From Escherichia coli (GTDB taxonomy: Bacteria; Pseudomonadota; Gammaproteobacteria; Enterobacterales; Enterobacteriaceae): a stretch of DNA of 64,000 nt. The translations under genes and the position numbers were made by a program. Below the pieces are notes generated by a model. The model saw only the letters and a list, made by a program, of their open reading frames with translations. It ran no database searches and was not told where the DNA came from. Within the stretch, counting starts at the first letter, position 1, and each line of letters starts with the position of its first letter. Shown piece after piece: positions 2,473 through 59,851 of this stretch. The stretch lies in assembly GCF_024700885.2 (NCBI RefSeq), contig NZ_CP117016.1. One strand, written 5' to 3'.

Positions 2473-3045
2473 TTGACACTGTCATCGCAACATTATCTGG
2501 TGATCACTGCGTTGGGTGCCGATCGCCCTGGAATTGTGAACACCATCACCCGTCATGTCAGTAGTTGCGGCTGTAATATTGAAGACAGTCGCCTGGCGAT
2601 GCTGGGAGAAGAGTTCACGTTTATTATGCTGCTTTCCGGTTCATGGAATGCCATTACTCTGATTGAATCAACGTTACCGTTGAAAGGTGCCGAGCTGGAT
2701 CTTTTAATCGTGATGAAGCGCACGACGGCGCGTCCGCGTCCGCCAATGCCAGCATCTGTCTGGGTTCAGGTCGATGTGGCAGACTCCCCGCATTTAATTG
2801 AACGCTTCACAGCACTTTTCGACGCGCATCATATGAACATTGCGGAGCTGGTGTCGCGCACGCAACCTGCTGAAAATGAACGGGCTGCGCAGTTGCATAT
2901 TCAGATAACCGCCCACAGCCCCGCATCTGCGGACGCAGCAAATATTGAGCAAGCATTCAAAGCCCTATGTACAGAACTCAATGCACAAGGCAGTATTAAC
3001 GTCGTCAATTATTCCCAACATGATGAACAGGATGGAGTTAAGTAA
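2473..3045 (+). CDS. gcvR: Glycine cleavage system transcriptional repressor GcvR
   Basis: ORF 2407-3045. The known GcvR sequence (M)TLSSQHYLVITALGADRPGIV starts at the in-frame TTG at 2473, giving 190 aa. Tandem ACT-like domains. Confidence 0.9.
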   Translation: MTLSSQHYLVITALGADRPGIVNTITRHVSSCGCNIEDSRLAMLGEEFTFIMLLSGSWNAITLIESTLPLKGAELDLLIVMKRTTARPRPPMPASVWVQVDVADSPHLIERFTALFDAHHMNIAELVSRTQPAENERAAQLHIQITAHSPASADAANIEQAFKALCTELNAQGSINVVNYSQHDEQDGVK

Positions 3046-3767: not shown

Positions 3768-4385
3768 ATGAACCGCTTTGTGGTGGCCGAACCACTGTGG
3801 TGTACAGGATGTAATACCTGTCTCGCTGCCTGTTCGGACGTGCATAAAACGCAAGGTTTACAGCAACACCCGCGCCTGGCCCTGGCGAAGACGTCAACAC
3901 TCACTGCCCCTGTCGTGTGTCATCACTGTGAGGAAGCCCCTTGCCTGCAGGTCTGCCCGGTCAATGCCATCTCCCAGAGGGATGATGCGATCCAACTCAA
4001 CGAAAGCCTCTGTATTGGCTGCAAGCTTTGTGCCGTGGTCTGCCCATTTGGCGCAATCAGCGCTTCAGGAAGCCGTCCGGTGAATGCCCCTGCGCAATAT
4101 GTTTTTCAGGCTGAGGGCTCACTCAAAGACGGCGAAGAAAACGCGCCGACCCAACATGCTTTGCTGCGCTGGGAACCGGGTGTCCAGACCGTCGCGGTGA
4201 AATGCGACCTGTGTGATTTCTTGCCAGAAGGTCCGGCCTGCGTTCGCGCTTGCCCGAATCAGGCGTTACGGCTGATCACCGACGATAGCCTGCAACGTCA
4301 GATGAAAGAAAAACAGCGCATTGCCGCAAGCTGGTTTGCCAATGGCGGGGAGGATCCCCTTTCCCTCACTCAGGAGCAACGCTAA
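3768..4385 (+). CDS. hyfA: Hydrogenase-4 component A, 4Fe-4S ferredoxin-type subunit
   Basis: ORF 3729-4385. MNRFVVAEPLWCTGCNTCLAAC starts at 3768 behind the RBS aaggag. Multiple CxxCxxCxxxCP clusters. Confidence 0.95.
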   Translation: MNRFVVAEPLWCTGCNTCLAACSDVHKTQGLQQHPRLALAKTSTLTAPVVCHHCEEAPCLQVCPVNAISQRDDAIQLNESLCIGCKLCAVVCPFGAISASGSRPVNAPAQYVFQAEGSLKDGEENAPTQHALLRWEPGVQTVAVKCDLCDFLPEGPACVRACPNQALRLITDDSLQRQMKEKQRIAASWFANGGEDPLSLTQEQR

Positions 4386-6403
4386 TGGATGCCCTGCAAT
4401 TATTAACCTGGTCACTGATCCTCTATCTGTTTGCCAGTCTGGCTTCGCTGTTTTTACTCGGTCTGGACAGACTGGCTATTAAGCTTTCCGGCATCACATC
4501 GCTGGTGGGTGGCGTGATTGGCATCATCAGCGGAATTACGCAATTACATGCAGGCGTAACTTTAGTCGCCCGTTTTGCCACGCCTTTTGACTTTGCCGAT
4601 TTAACACTGCGAATGGATAGCCTCTCGGCATTTATGGTGATGGTTATCTCCTTGCTGGTGGTGGTTTGTTCGCTCTATTCATTGACTTATATGCGCGAAT
4701 ACGAGGGTAAAGGCGCGGCGGCGATGGGCTTCTTTATGAATCTTTTCATCGCATCGATGGTTGCCCTGCTGGTGATGGACAACGCTTTTTGGTTCATCGT
4801 GCTGTTTGAAATGATGTCGCTGTCTTCCTGGTTTCTGGTCATTGCCAGGCAGGATAAAACGTCGATCAACGCTGGCATGCTCTACTTTTTTATCGCCCAC
4901 GCCGGATCGGTGCTGATTATGATCGCCTTCTTGCTGATGGGGCGCGAAAGCGGCAGCCTCGATTTTGCCAGTTTCCGCACGCTTTCACTTTCTCCGGGGC
5001 TGGCGTCGGCGGTGTTCCTGCTGGCCTTTTTCGGTTTTGGCGCGAAAGCCGGGATGATGCCGTTGCACAGCTGGTTGCCACGCGCTCACCCTGCCGCACC
5101 ATCGCACGCTTCGGCGTTGATGTCTGGCGTAATGGTCAAAATCGGTATTTTCGGCATCCTGAAAGTAGCGATGGATCTGCTGGCGCAAACGGGTTTGCCG
5201 CTGTGGTGGGGCATTCTGGTGATGGCGATCGGCGCAATCTCCGCGCTCCTGGGCGTGCTGTATGCGCTGGCGGAACAGGATATCAAACGGCTGCTGGCCT
5301 GGAGTACCGTCGAAAACGTCGGCATTATTTTGCTGGCGGTCGGTGTGGCGATGGTCGGTCTGTCACTGCACGACCCGCTGCTCACCGTTGTTGGACTGCT
5401 CGGCGCGCTGTTTCATCTGCTCAACCATGCGCTGTTCAAAGGGCTGCTGTTTCTCGGCGCGGGTGCGATTATTTCGCGTTTGCATACCCACGACATGGAA
5501 AAAATGGGGGCACTGGCGAAACGTATGCCGTGGACAGCCGCAGCATGCCTGATTGGTTGCCTCGCGATATCAGCCATTCCTCCGCTGAATGGTTTTATCA
5601 GCGAATGGTACACCTGGCAGTCGCTGTTCTCACTAAGTCGTGTGGAAGCCGTAGCGCTACAACTTGCGGGTCCTATTGCTATGGTGATGCTGGCAGTCAC
5701 TGGTGGGCTGGCAGTAATGTGCTTCGTCAAAATGTACGGTATTACTTTCTGTGGAGCGCCGCGCAGTACACACGCTGAAGAGGCACAGGAAGTGCCAAAT
5801 ACGATGATCGTCGCCATGCTACTGCTCGCGGCACTCTGCGTATTCATTGCGCTTAGTGCCAGTTGGCTGGCACCGAAGATAATGCACATTGCCCATGCGT
5901 TTACCAATACCCTTCCCGTCACTGTCGCCAGCGGAATAGCACTTGTACCCGGCACGTTTCATACACGGGTCACTCCCTCATTACTGTTGCTGTTACTACT
6001 GGCGATGCCTTTGCTGCCTGGCCTTTACTGGCTGTGGTGTCGTTCGCGCCGCGCAGCGTTTCGTCGCACTGGAGATGCCTGGGCATGCGGCTACGGCTGG
6101 GAACATGCGATGGCCCCGTCAGGCAATGGCGTGATGCAGCCGCTGCGTGTGGTCTTTTGTGCGCTATTTCGTCTACGACAACAGCTCGACCCTACGCTGA
6201 GGCTAAATAAAGGTCTTGCGCATGTCACCGCCAGGGCTCAGAGCACAGAACCCTTCTGGGATGAGCGGGTGATCCGCCCCATCGTGAGCGCCACCCAACG
6301 GCTGGCCAAAGAAATACAGCATCTGCAAAGCGGCGACTTTCGTCTCTATTGCCTGTATGTGGTCGCCGCACTGGTTGTGCTGCTAATCGCTATTGCCGTC
6401 TAA
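4385..6403 (+). CDS. hyfB: Hydrogenase-4 component B (NuoL/ND5-like antiporter-type membrane subunit)
   Basis: 672-aa polytopic membrane protein with the proton-conducting membrane transporter motif (WLPRAHPAAPSHASALMSG). Operon position. Confidence 0.95.
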   Translation: MDALQLLTWSLILYLFASLASLFLLGLDRLAIKLSGITSLVGGVIGIISGITQLHAGVTLVARFATPFDFADLTLRMDSLSAFMVMVISLLVVVCSLYSLTYMREYEGKGAAAMGFFMNLFIASMVALLVMDNAFWFIVLFEMMSLSSWFLVIARQDKTSINAGMLYFFIAHAGSVLIMIAFLLMGRESGSLDFASFRTLSLSPGLASAVFLLAFFGFGAKAGMMPLHSWLPRAHPAAPSHASALMSGVMVKIGIFGILKVAMDLLAQTGLPLWWGILVMAIGAISALLGVLYALAEQDIKRLLAWSTVENVGIILLAVGVAMVGLSLHDPLLTVVGLLGALFHLLNHALFKGLLFLGAGAIISRLHTHDMEKMGALAKRMPWTAAACLIGCLAISAIPPLNGFISEWYTWQSLFSLSRVEAVALQLAGPIAMVMLAVTGGLAVMCFVKMYGITFCGAPRSTHAEEAQEVPNTMIVAMLLLAALCVFIALSASWLAPKIMHIAHAFTNTLPVTVASGIALVPGTFHTRVTPSLLLLLLLAMPLLPGLYWLWCRSRRAAFRRTGDAWACGYGWEHAMAPSGNGVMQPLRVVFCALFRLRQQLDPTLRLNKGLAHVTARAQSTEPFWDERVIRPIVSATQRLAKEIQHLQSGDFRLYCLYVVAALVVLLIAIAV

Positions 6404-48501: not shown

Positions 48502-48965
48502 TATTTTCTCTCCATGTGAAATCTGTGGAAATTAAGACCAAGAGCACCATAAGGCGCGGCTTCTTCAAGCCTGAATCCAAGCCAGTGCAGCCATGCTTTG
48601 GCAACATGGTTTCGCTCGTCGACGTAGTTTTCCAGGCGTGGATAAACTGCCAGCATCTGCTGCAATACAGGGCGGCAGTGGCGAAGAAATGTCTTCTGAT
48701 ATTTTTCAATACGGCTGGTTCCTACCAGCCAGGGCGTACCATTGCCACCGATCATTGACGCCGGAGATACGCCAAACATGGTTACCAGTTCTCCGTTCGC
48801 AAATCCTGACCAGGCCATAGTCGCAGTGCGAAGACCAACACGCAGCGCATCTTCGGTAGTCATCAGCGATACCGCATACAGTTCGTCAATATCAGCCTGA
48901 CGAACATCCGGAAAAATCATCTGAAGATGCTCTTCGGTAGCGGGAACAATTCGAACATCGATCAT
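48501..48965 (-). CDS. Virion assembly/internal protein (T7 gp13-position)
   Basis: 154 aa, between the gp12-like and gp14-like genes. Assignment by synteny only. Confidence 0.45.
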   Translation of the reverse strand: MIDVRIVPATEEHLQMIFPDVRQADIDELYAVSLMTTEDALRVGLRTATMAWSGFANGELVTMFGVSPASMIGGNGTPWLVGTSRIEKYQKTFLRHCRPVLQQMLAVYPRLENYVDERNHVAKAWLHWLGFRLEEAAPYGALGLNFHRFHMERK

Positions 48966-54948: not shown

Positions 54949-55245
54949 TCACTCCTGTTCACTGGCCTCTTTGGCCATCTTCAAATACTGTTCAGGGCAA
55001 TGCGCCATAACGCGCTGAAACAGTTCCAGCGCCAGATTGCGTTGCCCCTCATTAAATGCCATTGCCATAGCATCCATCGGAGAGATAGCGGAAAACACCC
55101 GGCCTTTCTCCAGCACCGACCAGACAACGCGACGCCCCTGTTCACTGCTCATGACAAAGCGAATGTCATCAATTTCACGCTGTGCCATGTCACGTTGCTT
55201 ACGGGCGTTTTCTTCTTTCAGTTGATCGTCTTCGTAATCTGTCAT
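54949..55245 (-). CDS. Small head-module protein (Bbp19-like position)
   Basis: 98 aa with ATGA overlaps on both sides, between the portal and scaffold genes. Confidence 0.45.
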   Translation of the reverse strand: MTDYEDDQLKEENARKQRDMAQREIDDIRFVMSSEQGRRVVWSVLEKGRVFSAISPMDAMAMAFNEGQRNLALELFQRVMAHCPEQYLKMAKEASEQE

Positions 55246-56921
55246 TGTGATTGCCCACCCTGACCACTAACTGCATTCGCCATAGCTGACAAAACACTCG
55301 GATCCGAAGTTTTAGCTTCGCTTAGCGTCTTGGCACCCTGTGCCGCCGCCATCCCCATCGCCATCATTTGTTGCTGCTGTTGTTGCTGTGCCCGTTGCTG
55401 GCGAGCCTGCTCAACCTGTTCCTGCGGAACAATGACGGTTGGAGACACTCCGGACATATCAGCGAATGCATCGATCGCCTGATCAACGTTGAGTTTGTCG
55501 AGAGCTTCTGGTTTCGCTTGCGCAAGTTGACCAATAAAGTTGACCGTGGATGCCAGACTGGACAGGCCGATAGACTTCTGCGCCTGAGCCATGACGGAAA
55601 TGTATTCGACCTTCAGGGGCATACCTTCCATCGCGTCAGGCGGTGGCGGCAGCATGTTTTTACGCACCATCATCGAGAAAGCGCGGTCAATGAGAGGATT
55701 AAGACATTCGTCGTTCAGACGCTCCAGAACCGGCCCCAACATCAGAAGTTTTTCTTCTTTCATTTCGATCACCGCTTCAACAGGCATCGAGCGGGTATTG
55801 ATGTTCTGCAACATCATGAACAGATCGACAAAGTAGGCGCTGTTAATGATTTGACGAGTGTCCTGAATGTCTGCCACCAAATCTGCTGTACTGGGGTTAA
55901 CCAGATAAGCAGGCCTGAAACCATCCTGACCAGTAATCTGATCGATATACGTGATGTCGCCAGGAAGAAGGGAGGCACGCTGATTCTTGAGGGAAATCGG
56001 AGCAACCATCGGCGGATTGGTGGCTTTATCAATCAACTGCGACTTGCGCTTCTGGAGAAGCTGCAATGCCTTAACAGGTCCAAGCGCCAGCATACCCGGG
56101 CATGATGATCCATAAACATCTTCGCCGTTAACTTCCCAGCGCGGAGCCATAATTGGAAACTCATCGAATCCGGACTCACGCAACAACTTGTCGTTATCGC
56201 CACCAACCTCGTAATAAACCGATTTGAATGGCTTGTTCTTGCTATCCAGCTTCGATGTATCGCGGTCAATGTTCGGGTAAACCGAATGCATCACTTCAAT
56301 CCACTTCTCGTAGGTGCCGCTTTCCCACATGCTTTTTACGGATTCGCTGACGTTATTTAGCCCGAACTCCTGAACAAGCTGACGAACAGTCATAGAGAAC
56401 TTGCGAAAACAGGTGTCAACACTGCCACGAGGTGAGTTAGCCAGGTAGTAACTTCCTATCGGGAATGGCATTGTACGAATGATGTCCTCGTCATCCTCCA
56501 GCACCGCCATTGCGCCAGTGCTGTATGTGCCGAGGCTTCCGTATAACTGCGGCAGCGACTGATAGAGATTCGACTTATTGAACATATCGTTCATGCGGTT
56601 CTGCACCGCCTCAAGCCACAACTTAACAGGGCCATAATCCATCATTTCAGGATCTGGCGTAGCCAGGCGAAACCACGGACGCGCTGGGCTTGTGATGCCT
56701 GACATCATGCCGCTGGCGAGAGTGCGCGCCGCCATAGTCCCGGTCGAATCAATAATGCGTGTATTGCGTCGATCGTTACGGTTGACCTCAGAAGTCAGAA
56801 AGCGGGAACCACGCGGGTTGATGTAATCACTCAACTCGCGCCAGTGCGGCTCGAACGACTGACGCTCGCTTTCAAGTTGTGCGAACTGTTTGTTCAATCG
56901 CTCTTTAGTTGTTTCCGCCAT
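55242..56921 (-). CDS. Portal protein
   Basis: 559 aa, in the head module downstream of the terminase genes (separated from them by a tRNA/moron island), with a Gln-rich C-terminal tail (ARQQRAQQQQQQQMMAMGMAAAQ). Size is typical for a podovirus portal. Confidence 0.8.
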   Translation of the reverse strand: MAETTKERLNKQFAQLESERQSFEPHWRELSDYINPRGSRFLTSEVNRNDRRNTRIIDSTGTMAARTLASGMMSGITSPARPWFRLATPDPEMMDYGPVKLWLEAVQNRMNDMFNKSNLYQSLPQLYGSLGTYSTGAMAVLEDDEDIIRTMPFPIGSYYLANSPRGSVDTCFRKFSMTVRQLVQEFGLNNVSESVKSMWESGTYEKWIEVMHSVYPNIDRDTSKLDSKNKPFKSVYYEVGGDNDKLLRESGFDEFPIMAPRWEVNGEDVYGSSCPGMLALGPVKALQLLQKRKSQLIDKATNPPMVAPISLKNQRASLLPGDITYIDQITGQDGFRPAYLVNPSTADLVADIQDTRQIINSAYFVDLFMMLQNINTRSMPVEAVIEMKEEKLLMLGPVLERLNDECLNPLIDRAFSMMVRKNMLPPPPDAMEGMPLKVEYISVMAQAQKSIGLSSLASTVNFIGQLAQAKPEALDKLNVDQAIDAFADMSGVSPTVIVPQEQVEQARQQRAQQQQQQQMMAMGMAAAQGAKTLSEAKTSDPSVLSAMANAVSGQGGQSQ

Positions 56922-56935
56922 TTCAATGACTCCGG

Positions 56936-57142
56936 TTACTGACCAAGCAGCGTTTTACCGCTGGTATTAGCGGTTGATGTGTCGCCCTGAGAACCGGTAA
57001 GCAGCGTAGAACTACGACCAGCAGCAGCGCGACGGCGACGAGTTTCTTCGTCGCGGGCATCAACAACGGCGGCATCCTGCTCCTGTGGTGCTGCCTGAAC
57101 TTCTGGTGTTGCAGGCACTGATGGTGAGCTACCCATGCACAT
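56936..57142 (-). CDS. Small Arg/Thr-rich protein preceding the portal gene
   Basis: 68 aa. Its translation-initiation region cggagtcattgaTatg is nearly identical to that of the portal gene (cggagtcattgaAatg). Confidence 0.45.
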   Translation of the reverse strand: MCMGSSPSVPATPEVQAAPQEQDAAVVDARDEETRRRRAAAGRSSTLLTGSQGDTSTANTSGKTLLGQ

Positions 57143-57168
57143 ATCAATGACTCCGTACGCAATTAAAT

Positions 57169-57248
57169 TATTACCAATTTAACCACATATGATTTATTTA
57201 TCGTAGATAGTTGACATTTAACGCACAAATTATTACCTTTAAGGTAAC
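57169..57248. promoter_or_regulatory. Shared regulatory module, copy B, with a plus-strand promoter candidate for the leader/tRNA unit
   Basis: tATTACC-N5-AACCACATATG (57169-57191), TTGACA-N17-TACCTT (57211-57239) and the palindrome TTACCTT-T-AAGGTAA (57233-57247). Compare copy A at 39947-40013. Confidence 0.35.
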
Positions 57249-57569
57249 TAAAGAGTTCATTCCGGTTACTAACCTGACTGGCTTGTCGTTAAATTGAACA
57301 GGTGGAGTGAGCTTTTATTTTGAGCAGTACGGCGTATGGCACATGCGCCGATAGCGGTCTGGATACGTTTAAGGGGCACCCTCCCTTGCTCGGGCAAACG
57401 AACCAGGTAGCCGGAATGTGCAAGTCGAGCGGTTTTATTCCGCGCACGGGGATTCACCATCCCGGCTATTCGGTGTGACGCCTCGGAATAGACGAGGGTA
57501 CAACGATGAGAGCATTTATGGAGCTGCGACAAAGTGTGGCGCATTAACAGGCTAAGTGCTCTCAGCGTT

Positions 57570-57646
57570 GTGGCATTAGCTCAGCTGGACAGAGCAACCG
57601 CCTTCTAAGCGGTTGGTCGCAGGTTCGAATCCTGCATGCCACGCCA
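57570..57646 (+). tRNA. tRNA-Arg (anticodon UCU, reads AGA), CCA encoded
   Basis: Hand-folded cloverleaf: acceptor GTGGCAT/ATGCCAC, D-loop AGCTCAGCTGGACAGAGC, anticodon arm ACCGC-CTTCTAA-GCGGT, T-arm GCAGGTTCGAATCCTGC, discriminator G + CCA. Confidence 0.9.
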
Positions 57647-57689
57647 GAATCACGCCTAAGGACCGTGATGCCAGAAGTTCCAGGTGCTT

Positions 57690-57732
57690 GGCGGTGATGG
57701 TTTCCCTTGAAGGACTATCACCGCCCTTTTTT
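57690..57732 (+). terminator. Rho-independent terminator downstream of the tRNA
   Basis: ggcggtgat ... atcaccgcc 9-bp stem followed by CTTTTTT. Confidence 0.7.
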
Positions 57733-57810
57733 ACAGCAGGACGCCATTGCGATGACTTCATGCTGTAAACCCGTACAGCCACGGAAGGCATAACTCATTG
57801 CTTCCAGTTC

Positions 57811-57834
57811 GCCCGGTTCGCCGGGCATTTTTTT
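57811..57834 (+). terminator. Second rho-independent terminator
   Basis: gcccgg-ttcg-ccgggc followed by ATTTTTTT. Confidence 0.65.
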
Positions 57835-57942
57835 GGCGTGATACGTCACAATTATGATATCGATGCAGATTACGACATACATGAAAAACATGTCATAGTA
57901 TCTCCTGAGGTTAATCTCGATTCAAAAAGAGGATGATTTATA

Positions 57943-58290
57943 ATGATTAAAATCAATAACGTACGTGGTGCTAACGTTAGCGTCAACGGAGAAGACTTCA
58001 CTGGTCATCATATTACGATTAACAATGGAAAAGTGATCGTTGATGGTGTCGAAAAAAATAGCAATCTTGACGGACAGATTAACGTAACAATTAATGGAAG
58101 CGTGGAAGGCGTTGAGATTGAAAATGGATCAGTGACTGTAAGCGGTGATGCACATTATGTGAAAACTATGTCTGGTGATGTCCATTGTTCCAATGTATTG
58201 GGAAATGTAAACACCATGTCTGGAGATGTAATCTGCGAAACTGTTGGTGGAAACGCCAGCACAATGTCTGGAAATATTATCAAGAAATAA
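57943..58290 (+). CDS. Small beta-helix-repeat protein (bactofilin-like repeat pattern), prophage moron
   Basis: 115 aa, RBS gagga. Repeated G-x-V/I pattern and three 16-residue turns beginning TMSGDV/TMSGDV/TMSGNI. Opposite strand to the flanking late genes. Terminators on both sides. Confidence 0.65.
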   Translation: MIKINNVRGANVSVNGEDFTGHHITINNGKVIVDGVEKNSNLDGQINVTINGSVEGVEIENGSVTVSGDAHYVKTMSGDVHCSNVLGNVNTMSGDVICETVGGNASTMSGNIIKK

Positions 58291-58302
58291 TTATTTAAAA
58301 AT

Positions 58303-58332
58303 AAAGCCCGCCAAATGCGCGCGCTTTGTTTT
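58303..58332 (+). terminator. Terminator candidate after the beta-helix moron (convergent with terL)
   Basis: aaagcccgc / gcgcgcttt stem (one mismatch) followed by GTTTT. Confidence 0.45.
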
Positions 58333-58375
58333 ATCCTCACCAGAGGATATCAACGACATTATCCCCACCAGCGGA

Positions 58376-59851
58376 TTAAGCATAGGGATCGTAATCTGTA
58401 ATGGCCTTGCCTTGCTGGTTCTGCTGACCTGGAATTCGCAGACGCTTCGACACAGGGAACGCAAACGTCAGCAGTAGCGCATCGCCTTTACCCGGCGAAC
58501 GCCCAAGCCGCTCCTTGATATCCTCCTTCGGTTCGATAACGATTTTACCGTCCACGCGAACTTTGTACTCTGCCGCCGACAGGTCGTCTGCAGTTTCCTG
58601 GTCATCCAGCATGCCGCCCAGCCTCAGCCATGTCTTGCATGAGTTGAACATCTCCCCGCGCTTGTTGAGCATCTGAGGGTCAGTTGACGCGCCACCGAAC
58701 GGAACAAGTTGCCATGTGCGCCCCCAGCCGTCACCGATTGACTTCAGGCCAGTACCGTAACCGAAGTCGATGAACACCGCGTCGGCCTGATACTGGTCTT
58801 CAAAGTCAGCGATACGCTTCGCCATAATCAGATCGTCGGTGGTCTTGTTGCCAGTCCACAGCACCTTACTGTGCAGCCCCTGCCGCAGGTATATCACCGC
58901 GTCATCAACGCCGGAGTATGCCGGGTCAACTCCGATTATCACCGGAGCATGTGCCACCTGCGCAGCGGTTACCACCCGTTTCATTGCCTCGTCAGTAAGA
59001 CCGGTAGGGATAAACTGCAATTCAGATGCATCAGGGAATATGCCACGCACACGGATTTTAACGAAGTCGCTGTCTTCCCCGTAGTCATCAACCCATTTCT
59101 GCAACTGCTGTTTGTTAGTGCCTTCCACCGTCCGGCTGTCAATCTGCGCAGTTTTCCAGCGGTGTTTATATTTGCGGAAACATTCTCGGAAACGTCCGGT
59201 ATTACGCGTCGGGTTTCCGAACGCCACCCAGATAATCTCAGTGTCTTCGTCCGTAAGCGCACCCTCGGCAACTTCCCACACCAGATCCGCAATGTTCGAC
59301 GCTTCATCGAATACCACGATGATACGTTTGCGCTCGTTGTGTAGTCCGGCGAACGCCTCAGTATTGTGCTCAGACCAGGGGATTGCGTCAGCTCGCCACC
59401 GCTTGTCGTGCCCAGGATCATTGCTGTACATCGCGGTAGCGGTACAGGTGAACCAGTCTTTCGTGATAGCAAGGTTCGACCACTTGATAATTTCCGGCCA
59501 GGTCTTCGTTCGTAGCTGGTTGTCGGTGTTGGCGGTCACCACGATCTTACAATCCTCGCAAGTGGACATGCCCCAGTTGATCAGCATTGAGATGAATGCG
59601 GATTTACCAATACCGTGACCAGAAGCGCGTGCCAGCATAAGCGGCTGATAGCGCGTCTCTGGATTCTGCAGGTGATCACGTATCTCTCGGAACGCATCAG
59701 CCTGCCACTGACGTGGGCCGGTGGCATGTGCCAGTTCAGTCCCCTCTTCCCCCCACGGGAACGCATAGAGGGCATAGCCAAGCGGATCGTGAGTGAACCC
59801 TGCAATATCCTCGATCAACTGCTCTTCAGGAGATAACGCTGTATCTGTCAC
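58376..59851 (-). CDS. Terminase large subunit
   Basis: 491 aa with a Walker-A-like ARASGHGIGKS and a nuclease-type C-terminal half. GTGA overlap with terS. Size and position are typical. Confidence 0.88.
   Translation of the reverse strand: MTDTALSPEEQLIEDIAGFTHDPLGYALYAFPWGEEGTELAHATGPRQWQADAFREIRDHLQNPETRYQPLMLARASGHGIGKSAFISMLINWGMSTCEDCKIVVTANTDNQLRTKTWPEIIKWSNLAITKDWFTCTATAMYSNDPGHDKRWRADAIPWSEHNTEAFAGLHNERKRIIVVFDEASNIADLVWEVAEGALTDEDTEIIWVAFGNPTRNTGRFRECFRKYKHRWKTAQIDSRTVEGTNKQQLQKWVDDYGEDSDFVKIRVRGIFPDASELQFIPTGLTDEAMKRVVTAAQVAHAPVIIGVDPAYSGVDDAVIYLRQGLHSKVLWTGNKTTDDLIMAKRIADFEDQYQADAVFIDFGYGTGLKSIGDGWGRTWQLVPFGGASTDPQMLNKRGEMFNSCKTWLRLGGMLDDQETADDLSAAEYKVRVDGKIVIEPKEDIKERLGRSPGKGDALLLTFAFPVSKRLRIPGQQNQQGKAITDYDPYA

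Follow-up and report, generated by a model that had tools for sequence, protein, structure and literature searches.

Locus and prophage setting

Interval 57143-57569 of the window (the whole 64-kb stretch of Escherichia coli DNA that was analysed) is part of a prophage of the phiV10/epsilon15 type (Uetakevirus). It is located between two late operons, both of which are encoded on the minus strand.

58376-59851, minus strand: large terminase gene, one flank of the interval
55242-57142, minus strand: open reading frame (ORF) for 68 amino acids (aa) and portal gene, the other flank

The interval consists of two parts, a control region with a leader (57143-57325) and a structured RNA (about 57326-57569). 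This second part (57326-57569, plus strand) encodes a conserved, pseudoknotted RNA of about 245 nt, which is the subject of this report. phiV10, TL-2011b and related phages share the interval at 97-98% identity, and no feature is annotated there in the records of these phages that were examined. The RNA family is absent from Rfam 15, from the records examined and from the searchable literature; no description of it was found in the literature searched.

Fold and covariation of the RNA

The RNA is composed of a core and a terminal hairpin. The hairpins P1 and P7 must not be confused with the phages of the same names, which are called phage P1 and phage P7 below.

57326-57502, plus strand: RNA core, 177 nt (full-length match of covariance model R1; covariation)
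57330-38/57342-50, plus strand: helix P1 (covariation)
57357-62/57403-08, plus strand: helix P2, which closes a variable insert (alignment fold)
57410-12/57464-66, plus strand: helix P3 (invariant GCC/GGC)
57449-52/57460-63, plus strand: helix P5 with the 7-nt loop UUCACCA (3/4 pairs compensatory)
57455-58 with 57472-75, plus strand: pseudoknot of the P5 loop with a downstream strand (covariation)
57481-85/57493-97, plus strand: helix P6 (4/5 pairs changed on both sides)
57502-57569, plus strand: terminal hairpin P7, base helix 57502-16/57555-69, variable apex (strand pairing, covariation)

The core is thus built from five helices, an H-type pseudoknot and long invariant single-stranded blocks. 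An invariant block of 19 nt (GGUAGCCGGAAUGUGCAAG) is found at 57406-24. The fold was examined in an alignment of 29 homologues (non-redundant at 93% identity). When folded as proposed, 95.7% of the alignment cells are paired, compared to 28.6-50.5% after a shift of the 3' partners by 1-3 columns. Changes on both sides of a pair (compensatory changes) affect 12 pairs and 75 cells, values which are reached by none of 500 column shuffles. Of 79 distinct sequences, 62 have C-G and 17 have A-U at the pseudoknot pair C57455-G57475, with no mixed combination. Compensatory changes beyond the controls, the generic hallmark of a conserved structured RNA, occur in the core, in P7 and in the pseudoknot. 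The fold of 57246-57572 has a z-score of -2.6, and 0/100 shuffles are equally stable. Model R1, which represents the core, matches the window at full length (57326-57502) with 138.4 bits (E = 1.4e-41), and the R1 search found no second copy in the 64-kb window. The family collection was seeded with conserved motifs (the 19-mer or a P1 motif), so that the apparent invariance of these motifs is partly by construction; homologues derived by BLAST, which are not motif-seeded, likewise keep the 19-mer intact.

The original prediction, made from the letters of this one stretch, had drawn several helices by eye. Two of its hairpins are real: 57331-57349 is P1, where G57334-C57346 is replaced by A-U in 13/29 sequences, and 57481-57497 is P6. 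Its short arm GGGAT/ATCC is real as P5, but the 7-nt loop pairs with 57472-75, and this pseudoknot had been overlooked. The helix closing its three-way junction is conserved as GCC/GGC alone (P3), and because P3 is invariant, covariation cannot test it. For its long arm GTGC/GCAC, a candidate 3' strand occurs in 48/79 sequences versus 32% of shuffled tails, which speaks weakly in favour of the arm. The hairpin ttgc-tcgg-gcaa (57386-97) had to be given up; it is part of the variable insert, and the family as a whole does not conserve it.

The last nucleotides of hairpin P7, GUU, immediately adjoin G1 of the tRNA. Its apex is hypervariable. Its base is held in several sequence versions (AACGAUGAGAGCA/UGCUCUCAGCGUU, AACAGGUAAGAGCA/UGCUCUUUCCGUU and AACAUGAAAGCGCA/UGCGCUUCCAGUU). 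Strand pairing has a mean of -15.4 kcal/mol for cognate and -10.2 kcal/mol for non-cognate partners, the latter being strands that differ at 4 or more positions. P7 has G-U and U-G wobbles on the plus strand, which shows that it is the plus strand that folds. These wobbles fit an RNA fold, and P7 as an attC-like or other DNA recombination site was rejected as its principal interpretation. A boxA reading of the P7 3' strand (UGCUCUUU) was also dismissed: the strand is base-paired, covaries, and is replaced by UGCGCUUCC in other members. Lookalikes of tRNA T-arms (CUGGUUCAAUUCCAG, GCGGUUCGAUUCCGC and AAAGGUUCGAUUCCUUU) were seen in or just after the P7 apex in SPN1S (L007) and in the loci L097 and L101. 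Judged from their sequences, they suggest that tRNA genes have repeatedly been acquired here and have then decayed.

Non-coding status

In agreement with the original prediction, 57143-57569 contains no credible ORF. The ORFs in this interval are short or antisense. Across the 29 homologues, none of the reading frames stays open (minimum of 15-19 codons in each). The two variable inserts have lengths that fall evenly into all three residue classes mod 3. A protein-coding gene or small ORF was therefore rejected, as there is no conserved frame and the indels are not multiples of three.

Rfam 15 has no family that matches 57143-57569 at E <= 10, and none that matches the homologous element of mEp460, a Stx2c phage, Tyrion, PAT1 and phage P1 at E <= 1. 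Checks with Rfam and ARAGORN and for covariation, which had been proposed along with the original prediction, thus resulted in no known family, a single tRNA and covariation.

A degenerate tRNA relic had been considered in the original prediction. This view, or that of chance hairpins in a non-functional spacer, could point to the adjoining tRNA gene and to the P5 loop UUCACCA, which superficially resembles a T-loop or an anticodon loop. ARAGORN calls only the tRNA-Arg gene itself, however, and the Rfam tRNA model has no match in 57143-57569. Together with strong conservation and covariation in three unrelated phage groups, this practically refutes the relic. Of the two further options considered there, a processed leader and an independent structured RNA, the evidence favours the latter: the element is conserved, structured and co-transcribed with the tRNA.

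Transcription unit in the window

The RNA is the first product of a compact unit and is non-translated. The unit comprises, in this order, a promoter, a leader hairpin, the core, P7, tRNA-Arg(UCU), a small hairpin, two terminators and then a cargo ORF.

57143-57210, no strand assigned: divergent control region, also the 5' leader of the minus-strand portal-side operon; outside the structured RNA
57211-57239, plus strand: promoter-like TTGACA-N17-TACCTT (sequence match); the RNA lies about 85 nt downstream of it
57233-57247, plus strand: perfect palindrome TTACCTTTAAGGTAA, candidate regulator site that overlaps the promoter (sequence)
57251-57316, plus strand: leader hairpin P0, base AAAGAGUUCA/UGAGCUUUU, resembling a P7-type hairpin (predicted in minimum free energy and centroid folds)
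57570-57646, plus strand: tRNA-Arg, anticodon UCU (ARAGORN; Rfam tRNA model 71.7 bits)
57649-57669, plus strand: small conserved hairpin AUCACG-CCUAAGGAC-CGUGAU, found after the tRNA or a tRNA-like cassette
57690-57732, plus strand: intrinsic terminator T1, 14-bp stem and U-tract (terminator scan)
57811-57834, plus strand: intrinsic terminator T2, GCCCGG-TTCG-CCGGGC plus T7 (terminator scan)
57943-58290, plus strand: cargo ORF, 115 aa, repetitive MSGDV motif, phrog_3163 (unknown function) (ORF list, PHROG match)

The left part of the interval (about 180 nt) is kept only in Uetakevirus-type phages of Escherichia, Salmonella, Klebsiella and Enterobacter. Within it, 57143-57210 is nearly invariant in five such phages, and its motifs (ATTACC..AACCACATATG) are found a second time ahead of the tailspike gene, at 39945-39970. 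The promoter-like sequence that the original prediction had named is present, but its -10 element TACCTT is too weak to be reported by a consensus promoter scan, which reported no plus-strand promoter in 57000-58450. The -35 hexamer is TTGACA in 4/5 aligned Uetakevirus-type sequences and TTGACC in the fifth, from a Klebsiella phage. A second copy of the palindrome, with one mismatch, is located at 39998-40012; matches with at most 3 mismatches number 8, while 0.78 are expected by chance. It was further observed that 39945-40012 and 57170-57247 represent the same control region, ahead of the tailspike gene and of the portal-side operon, respectively, both with the palindrome TTACCTTTnAGGTAA. 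Judged by sequence comparison, the repeated control region probably serves late operons as a common site for a regulator. At the position of P0, the homologues from Klebsiella and Enterobacter have ACAACATGAAAGCGCAC...GGAGTGCGCTTCCAGGTGTG.

The tRNA-Arg(UCU) gene is the sole tRNA gene that ARAGORN calls in the whole window. In the RefSeq record of phiV10 (NC_007804.2; locus L319, 2034-2285), this stretch is without an annotated tRNA-Arg(UCU). That record instead has a minus-strand hypothetical ORF, PhiV10p04, which starts right after the interval, at the position of the tRNA in the window. In the record of O157 typing phage 10 (KP869108.1), a tRNA-Arg is annotated at the end of the equivalent match.

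T1 has a homologue in lambdoid loci, where it closes the unit, and GGCGGTG...CACCGCC-TTTT is kept after the cassettes found there. Between the cargo ORF and the convergent terminase gene, 58239-58340 contains a terminator hairpin (AAAGCCCGC...GCGCGCUUUGUUUU). Weak, sub-threshold Rfam matches to Trp, Thr and Leu leader RNAs at 58239-58340 are due to this hairpin and were rejected.

Homologues and distribution

The right-hand 240 nt of the interval (about 57329-57572) have approximately 81% identity to unannotated DNA of otherwise unrelated phages (BLAST). Such homologues occur in the lambdoid phages mEp460, cdtI and 2H10, in Stx2c-converting phages and in Stx2a_WGPS2, and also in mEp390. Phages of the phiV10/SPN1S type carry the RNA as well. 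Homologues restricted to the core were found by BLAST in the phages P1, P7 and D6 and in P1-like plasmids. Some part of the interval matches 1834/5426 complete E. coli genomes, with the right-hand part present in most of the matches listed.

A search with the exact 19-mer GGTAGCCGGAATGTGCAAG (57406-57424) retrieved at least 120 IMG/VR contigs, and a search with a second motif led to Enterobacterales genomes. In the species-level genome collection, the genuine matches are all from Enterobacterales, except for one contig labelled Bacillota. They come from Escherichia, Citrobacter, Klebsiella, Enterobacter, Kosakonia, Kluyvera, Phytobacter, Pseudescherichia, Pseudocitrobacter, Superficieibacter and 'Ca. 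Erwinia dacicola'. The remaining pattern matches in this collection were rejected by the covariance model and attributed to chance. The Bacillota-labelled contig (L191, 1753 bp) is from a metagenome-assembled genome and has a full-length match of 161 bits to the RNA. Because all other genome matches are from Enterobacterales, this is likely contamination or mis-binning.

Locus L024 has two copies of the RNA on its minus strand (3995-4156 with 154.8 bits and 4802-4961 with 108.1 bits). They are about 650 nt apart and flank an ORF of opposite orientation. Possibly, the RNA marks a border at which gene cassettes are swapped.

tRNAs and tRNA-like cassettes

The association with tRNA genes, emphasized in the original prediction, is real but partial. 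A tRNA-Arg(UCU) follows the RNA in 28/151 loci, and a tRNA-Ile2(CAT) precedes it in 18/151. In about two-thirds of the members, P7 is followed by GUGG, which opens either tRNA-Arg or a tRNA-like cassette of about 150 nt. Cassettes which start with GTGGTGAA or GTGGTAA account for about 67/105. Their stems resemble an acceptor stem (GUGGUGA/(U/C)CACCAC) and a D-arm (GCGCA-GGCUGA-UGCGC), and a hairpin resembles a T-arm (GCCGG-AGAUCAGCA-CCGGC). As in the window, the small hairpin and a terminator of this type come next; the small-hairpin element AATCACGCCTTAGGACCGTGAT is located 3' of the cassette in many homologous loci. Cassettes were seen in mEp460 (L001 2741-2960), L005, L013, L022 and others, and their equivalent in the window is the tRNA-Arg slot (57570-57732). 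They are detected neither by ARAGORN nor by Rfam.

The RNA could be no more than a processing or stability element, i.e., a folded 5' domain with sites for RNase III and RNase P and devoid of an activity of its own. Co-transcription with tRNAs fits this proposal, as do the long flanking hairpins, which resemble phage RNase III sites. The 19-nt invariant block, the other invariant single strands and the pseudoknot, however, represent far more constraint than a stabiliser needs, and most members have no genuine adjoining tRNA. We consider this explanation highly improbable.

Lambdoid and phage P1 loci

In mEp460, a gene for a cI-like repressor with its own terminator is followed by a promoter with two operator-like palindromes (TTGCATATCTCGCAA and TTGCATAATGCGCAA) and then by the RNA. 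Downstream of the RNA are P7, a tRNA-like cassette, a strong intrinsic terminator, a second P7-like hairpin and the first genes of the early-left operon. mEp390 is organised in this way too; its TTGACA-18-TACATT lies about 50 nt upstream of the RNA. The arrangement is shared by many IMG/VR prophages, some of which have the promoter mere nucleotides upstream of the P1 helix. The lambdoid loci lack an ORF from the promoter up to the strong intrinsic terminator (GGCGGTACCAG...CTGGTACCGC-TCTTTTT), and no promoter was detected between this terminator and the early genes. The noncoding leader from the promoter to the first early gene has about 0.55-0.85 kb in the loci examined and contains several related hairpins. 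The first early-operon proteins that were tested do not match any PHROG family annotated as an antiterminator; apart from a ParB-like one, they are all of unknown function. In lambda, the position that corresponds to that of the RNA is occupied by nutL and N.

The second P7-like hairpin (e.g., ACAAAACAGAGAAGAGCA...UGUUCUUCUCUGUUUUGUGGAG) was observed 3' of the unit terminator in L001 (about 2935-3020), L013, L129 and L011. Rfam assigns C4 antisense RNA and isrK by the antirepressor genes of mEp460 (L001 206-394) and of the Stx2c phage (L002 276-464), in both cases on the minus strand. In phage Tyrion, an int-alpA RNA (L005 3403-3467) lies between the RNA and the terminase gene.

In phage P1, the core, without P7, is located directly 3' of tRNA-Ile2(CAT) and upstream of ban. 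The phages P1, P7 and D6 share this site. The ban operon is under the control of the C1 repressor.

A cis-regulatory sensor may be envisaged, riboswitch-like or binding a protein or tRNA, which would respond to a cellular signal by choosing between a stop at T1/T2 and continuation into the genes beyond. Invariant unpaired blocks in a pseudoknotted core are a typical feature of RNAs that bind ligands, and the element is located in 5' leaders ahead of terminators. Yet a whole tRNA gene or a cassette of about 150 nt separates the conserved core from the terminator, so that an overlap of aptamer and terminator is not possible. The genes downstream differ from one context to another and are unrelated (cargo ORFs, early recombination genes, ban), and Rfam has no riboswitch match. 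A riboswitch was rejected on these grounds, and a sensor in the wider sense seems very unlikely.

Proposed function

We propose that the RNA may be a cis-acting antiterminator, which would work like put of phage HK022 but stands outside the put family. This reading is by analogy, and we assign it a probability of roughly 0.4. Cleavage by RNase P at the 5' end of the tRNA (57569/57570) would set the 3' end of the RNA. In its relatives, the tRNA-like cassette, or the upstream tRNA-Ile2 in phage P1, may serve as processing punctuation. The nascent RNA would act in cis, in the manner of put, on the RNA polymerase (RNAP) that transcribes it. The polymerase could then pass intrinsic terminators and proceed into the cargo ORF (window), the early-left operon (lambdoid phages) or ban (phage P1).

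In the lambdoid loci, the unit after the early-left promoter pL closes with a strong terminator, and no promoter was detected between this terminator and the early genes, which points to a need for read-through. The window fits the same need, since its cargo ORF has no detected promoter and lies behind two terminators. The long invariant unpaired blocks are consistent with an RNA that binds a conserved host machine.

The model for this proposal is provided by the antiterminator RNAs putL and putR of HK022 (King et al. 2011, as cited in PMC9378689). HK022 carries both of them, and put has been the subject of cryo-EM work (Hwang et al. 2022, PMC9378689). In our comparison, putL of HK022 and the annotated putL-like RNA of HK639 occupy the slot that corresponds to that of the RNA in lambdoid loci. 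The two have in common a location directly downstream of the early-left promoter, in lambdoid phages where no N-like gene was identified among the first early-operon proteins tested, and a position ahead of terminators and early genes. Just as put is downstream of a repressor-controlled early promoter, the RNA follows a pL with operator-like palindromes in lambdoid loci and lies about 85 nt after a promoter-like sequence in the window. Structured RNA with long invariant blocks is common to both, according to an alignment of 18 put sequences, and a tRNA-like cassette of the same kind can follow. Finally, ACGGCG...CAUGCGUCG is shared by the first hairpin of the RNA (helix P1) and put stem I, which is weak evidence.

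The differences are considerable. put has about 70 nt and two stems, as opposed to 170-245 nt, five core helices plus P7 and a different pseudoknot. The RNA also occurs outside lambdoid phages (Uetakevirus, phage P1). Read-through at put is factor-independent and is blocked by mutations in the zinc-binding domain of RNAP beta-prime, whereas for the RNA such behaviour is a prediction.

A covariance model of put (R2) was built from the 18 put sequences; in its consensus, stem I is CGAACGGCGCG..AAACCAUGCGUCGG and stem II is GGCGGG-hairpin-CGGCAAU. R2 found nothing at the RNA at E <= 10 in the window and 22 homologous loci, and nothing at E <= 0.1 in 100 loci. R1 has no match on HK639 or on 100 put-bearing loci. 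Membership in the put family was rejected, since the reciprocal model searches are negative and ACGGCG...CAUGCGUCG is all that is in common. The likening of put stem II to P7 was likewise discarded, because the alignment of 18 put sequences shows that GCUC-AGGA-GAGC is a local hairpin. A weak put-like match at 48734-48804, which falls into one of the closely spaced ORFs of an operon, is attributed to chance.

put and the RNA never occur together in the approximately 1 Mb of flanking sequence sampled for each. Together with the cassettes that both can carry, this is the pattern expected if they are alternative modules for one slot in mosaic phage genomes. Cassettes were also observed at put loci. 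The HK639-type put of the IMG/VR lambdoid contigs L235, L200, L273, L259 and L227 is followed by AACUGGAAUGUUUUG. Variable tRNA-like cassettes, closed by acceptor-like stems, are found about 90-300 nt after put, and several of them end with N-CCA, followed by AAGCAUUUC. The regex patterns for a cassette after put were too strict, so that the counts are qualitative only. The cassette after put in L235 and that after the RNA in Tyrion have more than 40 identical bases in common and share GAATGCGCAGGCTGATGCGCAGTGGGACGTGGCTGACTCACA.

Several points weigh against antitermination. The reciprocal negatives of R1 and R2 imply that the link to put is positional rather than one of homology. No second copy of the RNA was found, even with filters off, in the stretch of mEp460 that holds both early operons. 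In phage P1, the RNA is mid-operon, and no intrinsic terminator was detected on its strand upstream of ban. Read-through in the window would run antisense into the terminase gene. The unannotated early proteins might be N-like factors. The promoter scans are crude, and a missed promoter beyond the terminators would remove the need for antitermination. Also, a unit with its own promoter and terminator may be a self-contained gene for a stable RNA.

This last point leads to the strongest competitor, a discrete, stable RNA of about 170-245 nt that acts in trans. It would be cut out by tRNA-processing enzymes, possibly with RNase III acting at P0/P7, and could either be catalytic or bind or sequester a protein of host or phage origin (e.g., a nuclease, a translation factor or a defence protein). 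The terminators would then simply close a small stable-RNA operon, and the window unit does have both a promoter and a terminator of its own. A tRNA or tRNA-like structure flanks the RNA in most loci (28/151, 18/151 and about 67/105), P7 ends exactly at the 5' end of the tRNA, and the core is flanked by long hairpins. It is a mobile module, found in unrelated phage types at about 80% identity, and the tandem copies of L024 are separated by an inserted gene. On the other hand, no partner protein is consistently encoded next door, no target complementarity was identified, and a self-contained unit which ends at the strong terminator after pL would block the early-left operon in lambdoid phages. 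We thus regard an action in trans as somewhat unlikely.

If the RNA is an antiterminator, it may constitute a second, structurally unrelated class of self-sufficient antiterminator RNA, in three unrelated temperate phage groups of enterobacteria which include phage P1 and Stx2c-converting phages. Larger than put and pseudoknotted, it would reprogram the E. coli RNAP during transcription and be coupled to tRNA or tRNA-like cassettes that free it from the transcript. Early gene expression in many prophages, those of Shiga-toxin phages among them, would then hinge on an RNA that the records examined leave unannotated. A new structural class of antiterminator RNA is the most economical hypothesis, yet this wider claim is put forward still more tentatively than antitermination as such.

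Comparison with other RNAs

EAR (eps-associated RNA) of Bacillus has about 120 nt, is located inside an operon and promotes read-through of distal terminators. The mid-operon position of the RNA in the ban operon of phage P1 parallels that of EAR, but host range and sequence differ, and no Rfam family, EAR included, matches at E <= 10.

The original prediction had invoked GOLLD and ROOL. The analogy is loose. Like these, the RNA is phage-borne, is located by tRNA genes and has a complex fold and a function that is not known. It differs by its architecture, by its restriction to Enterobacterales, by the lack of an Rfam match at E <= 10 and by its much smaller size (about 245 nt rather than >500 nt).

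The tRNA cluster of phage T4 contains stable RNAs (species 1 and 2; rnaC and rnaD) that are co-transcribed and co-processed with the tRNAs and whose function is not known. They are likewise small RNAs tied to phage tRNAs. In contrast to T4, the phages considered here are temperate, and the RNA is tied to repressor-controlled early promoters.

Taken as a whole, the observation behind the original prediction is confirmed and stronger than assumed there, and its interpretation is partly supported; it had overlooked the pseudoknot, P7, the homologues in lambdoid phages and phage P1, and the terminators downstream.

Implications

The RNA is present in phage P1, in phiV10 (an O157 typing and reporter phage) and in Stx2c-converting phages, yet it is unannotated in the records examined. 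If it acts in trans, this would be a widespread phage RNA that is tied to undescribed tRNA-like cassettes. In either case, the covariance model and the coordinates make the family directly testable. If the RNA is indeed an antiterminator, control of RNA polymerase by RNA only would extend beyond HK022-like phages, and a second, structurally distinct system would be available for studies of terminator resistance. It would then also bear on how early genes are switched on in toxin-converting prophages, including those of Shiga-toxin phages.

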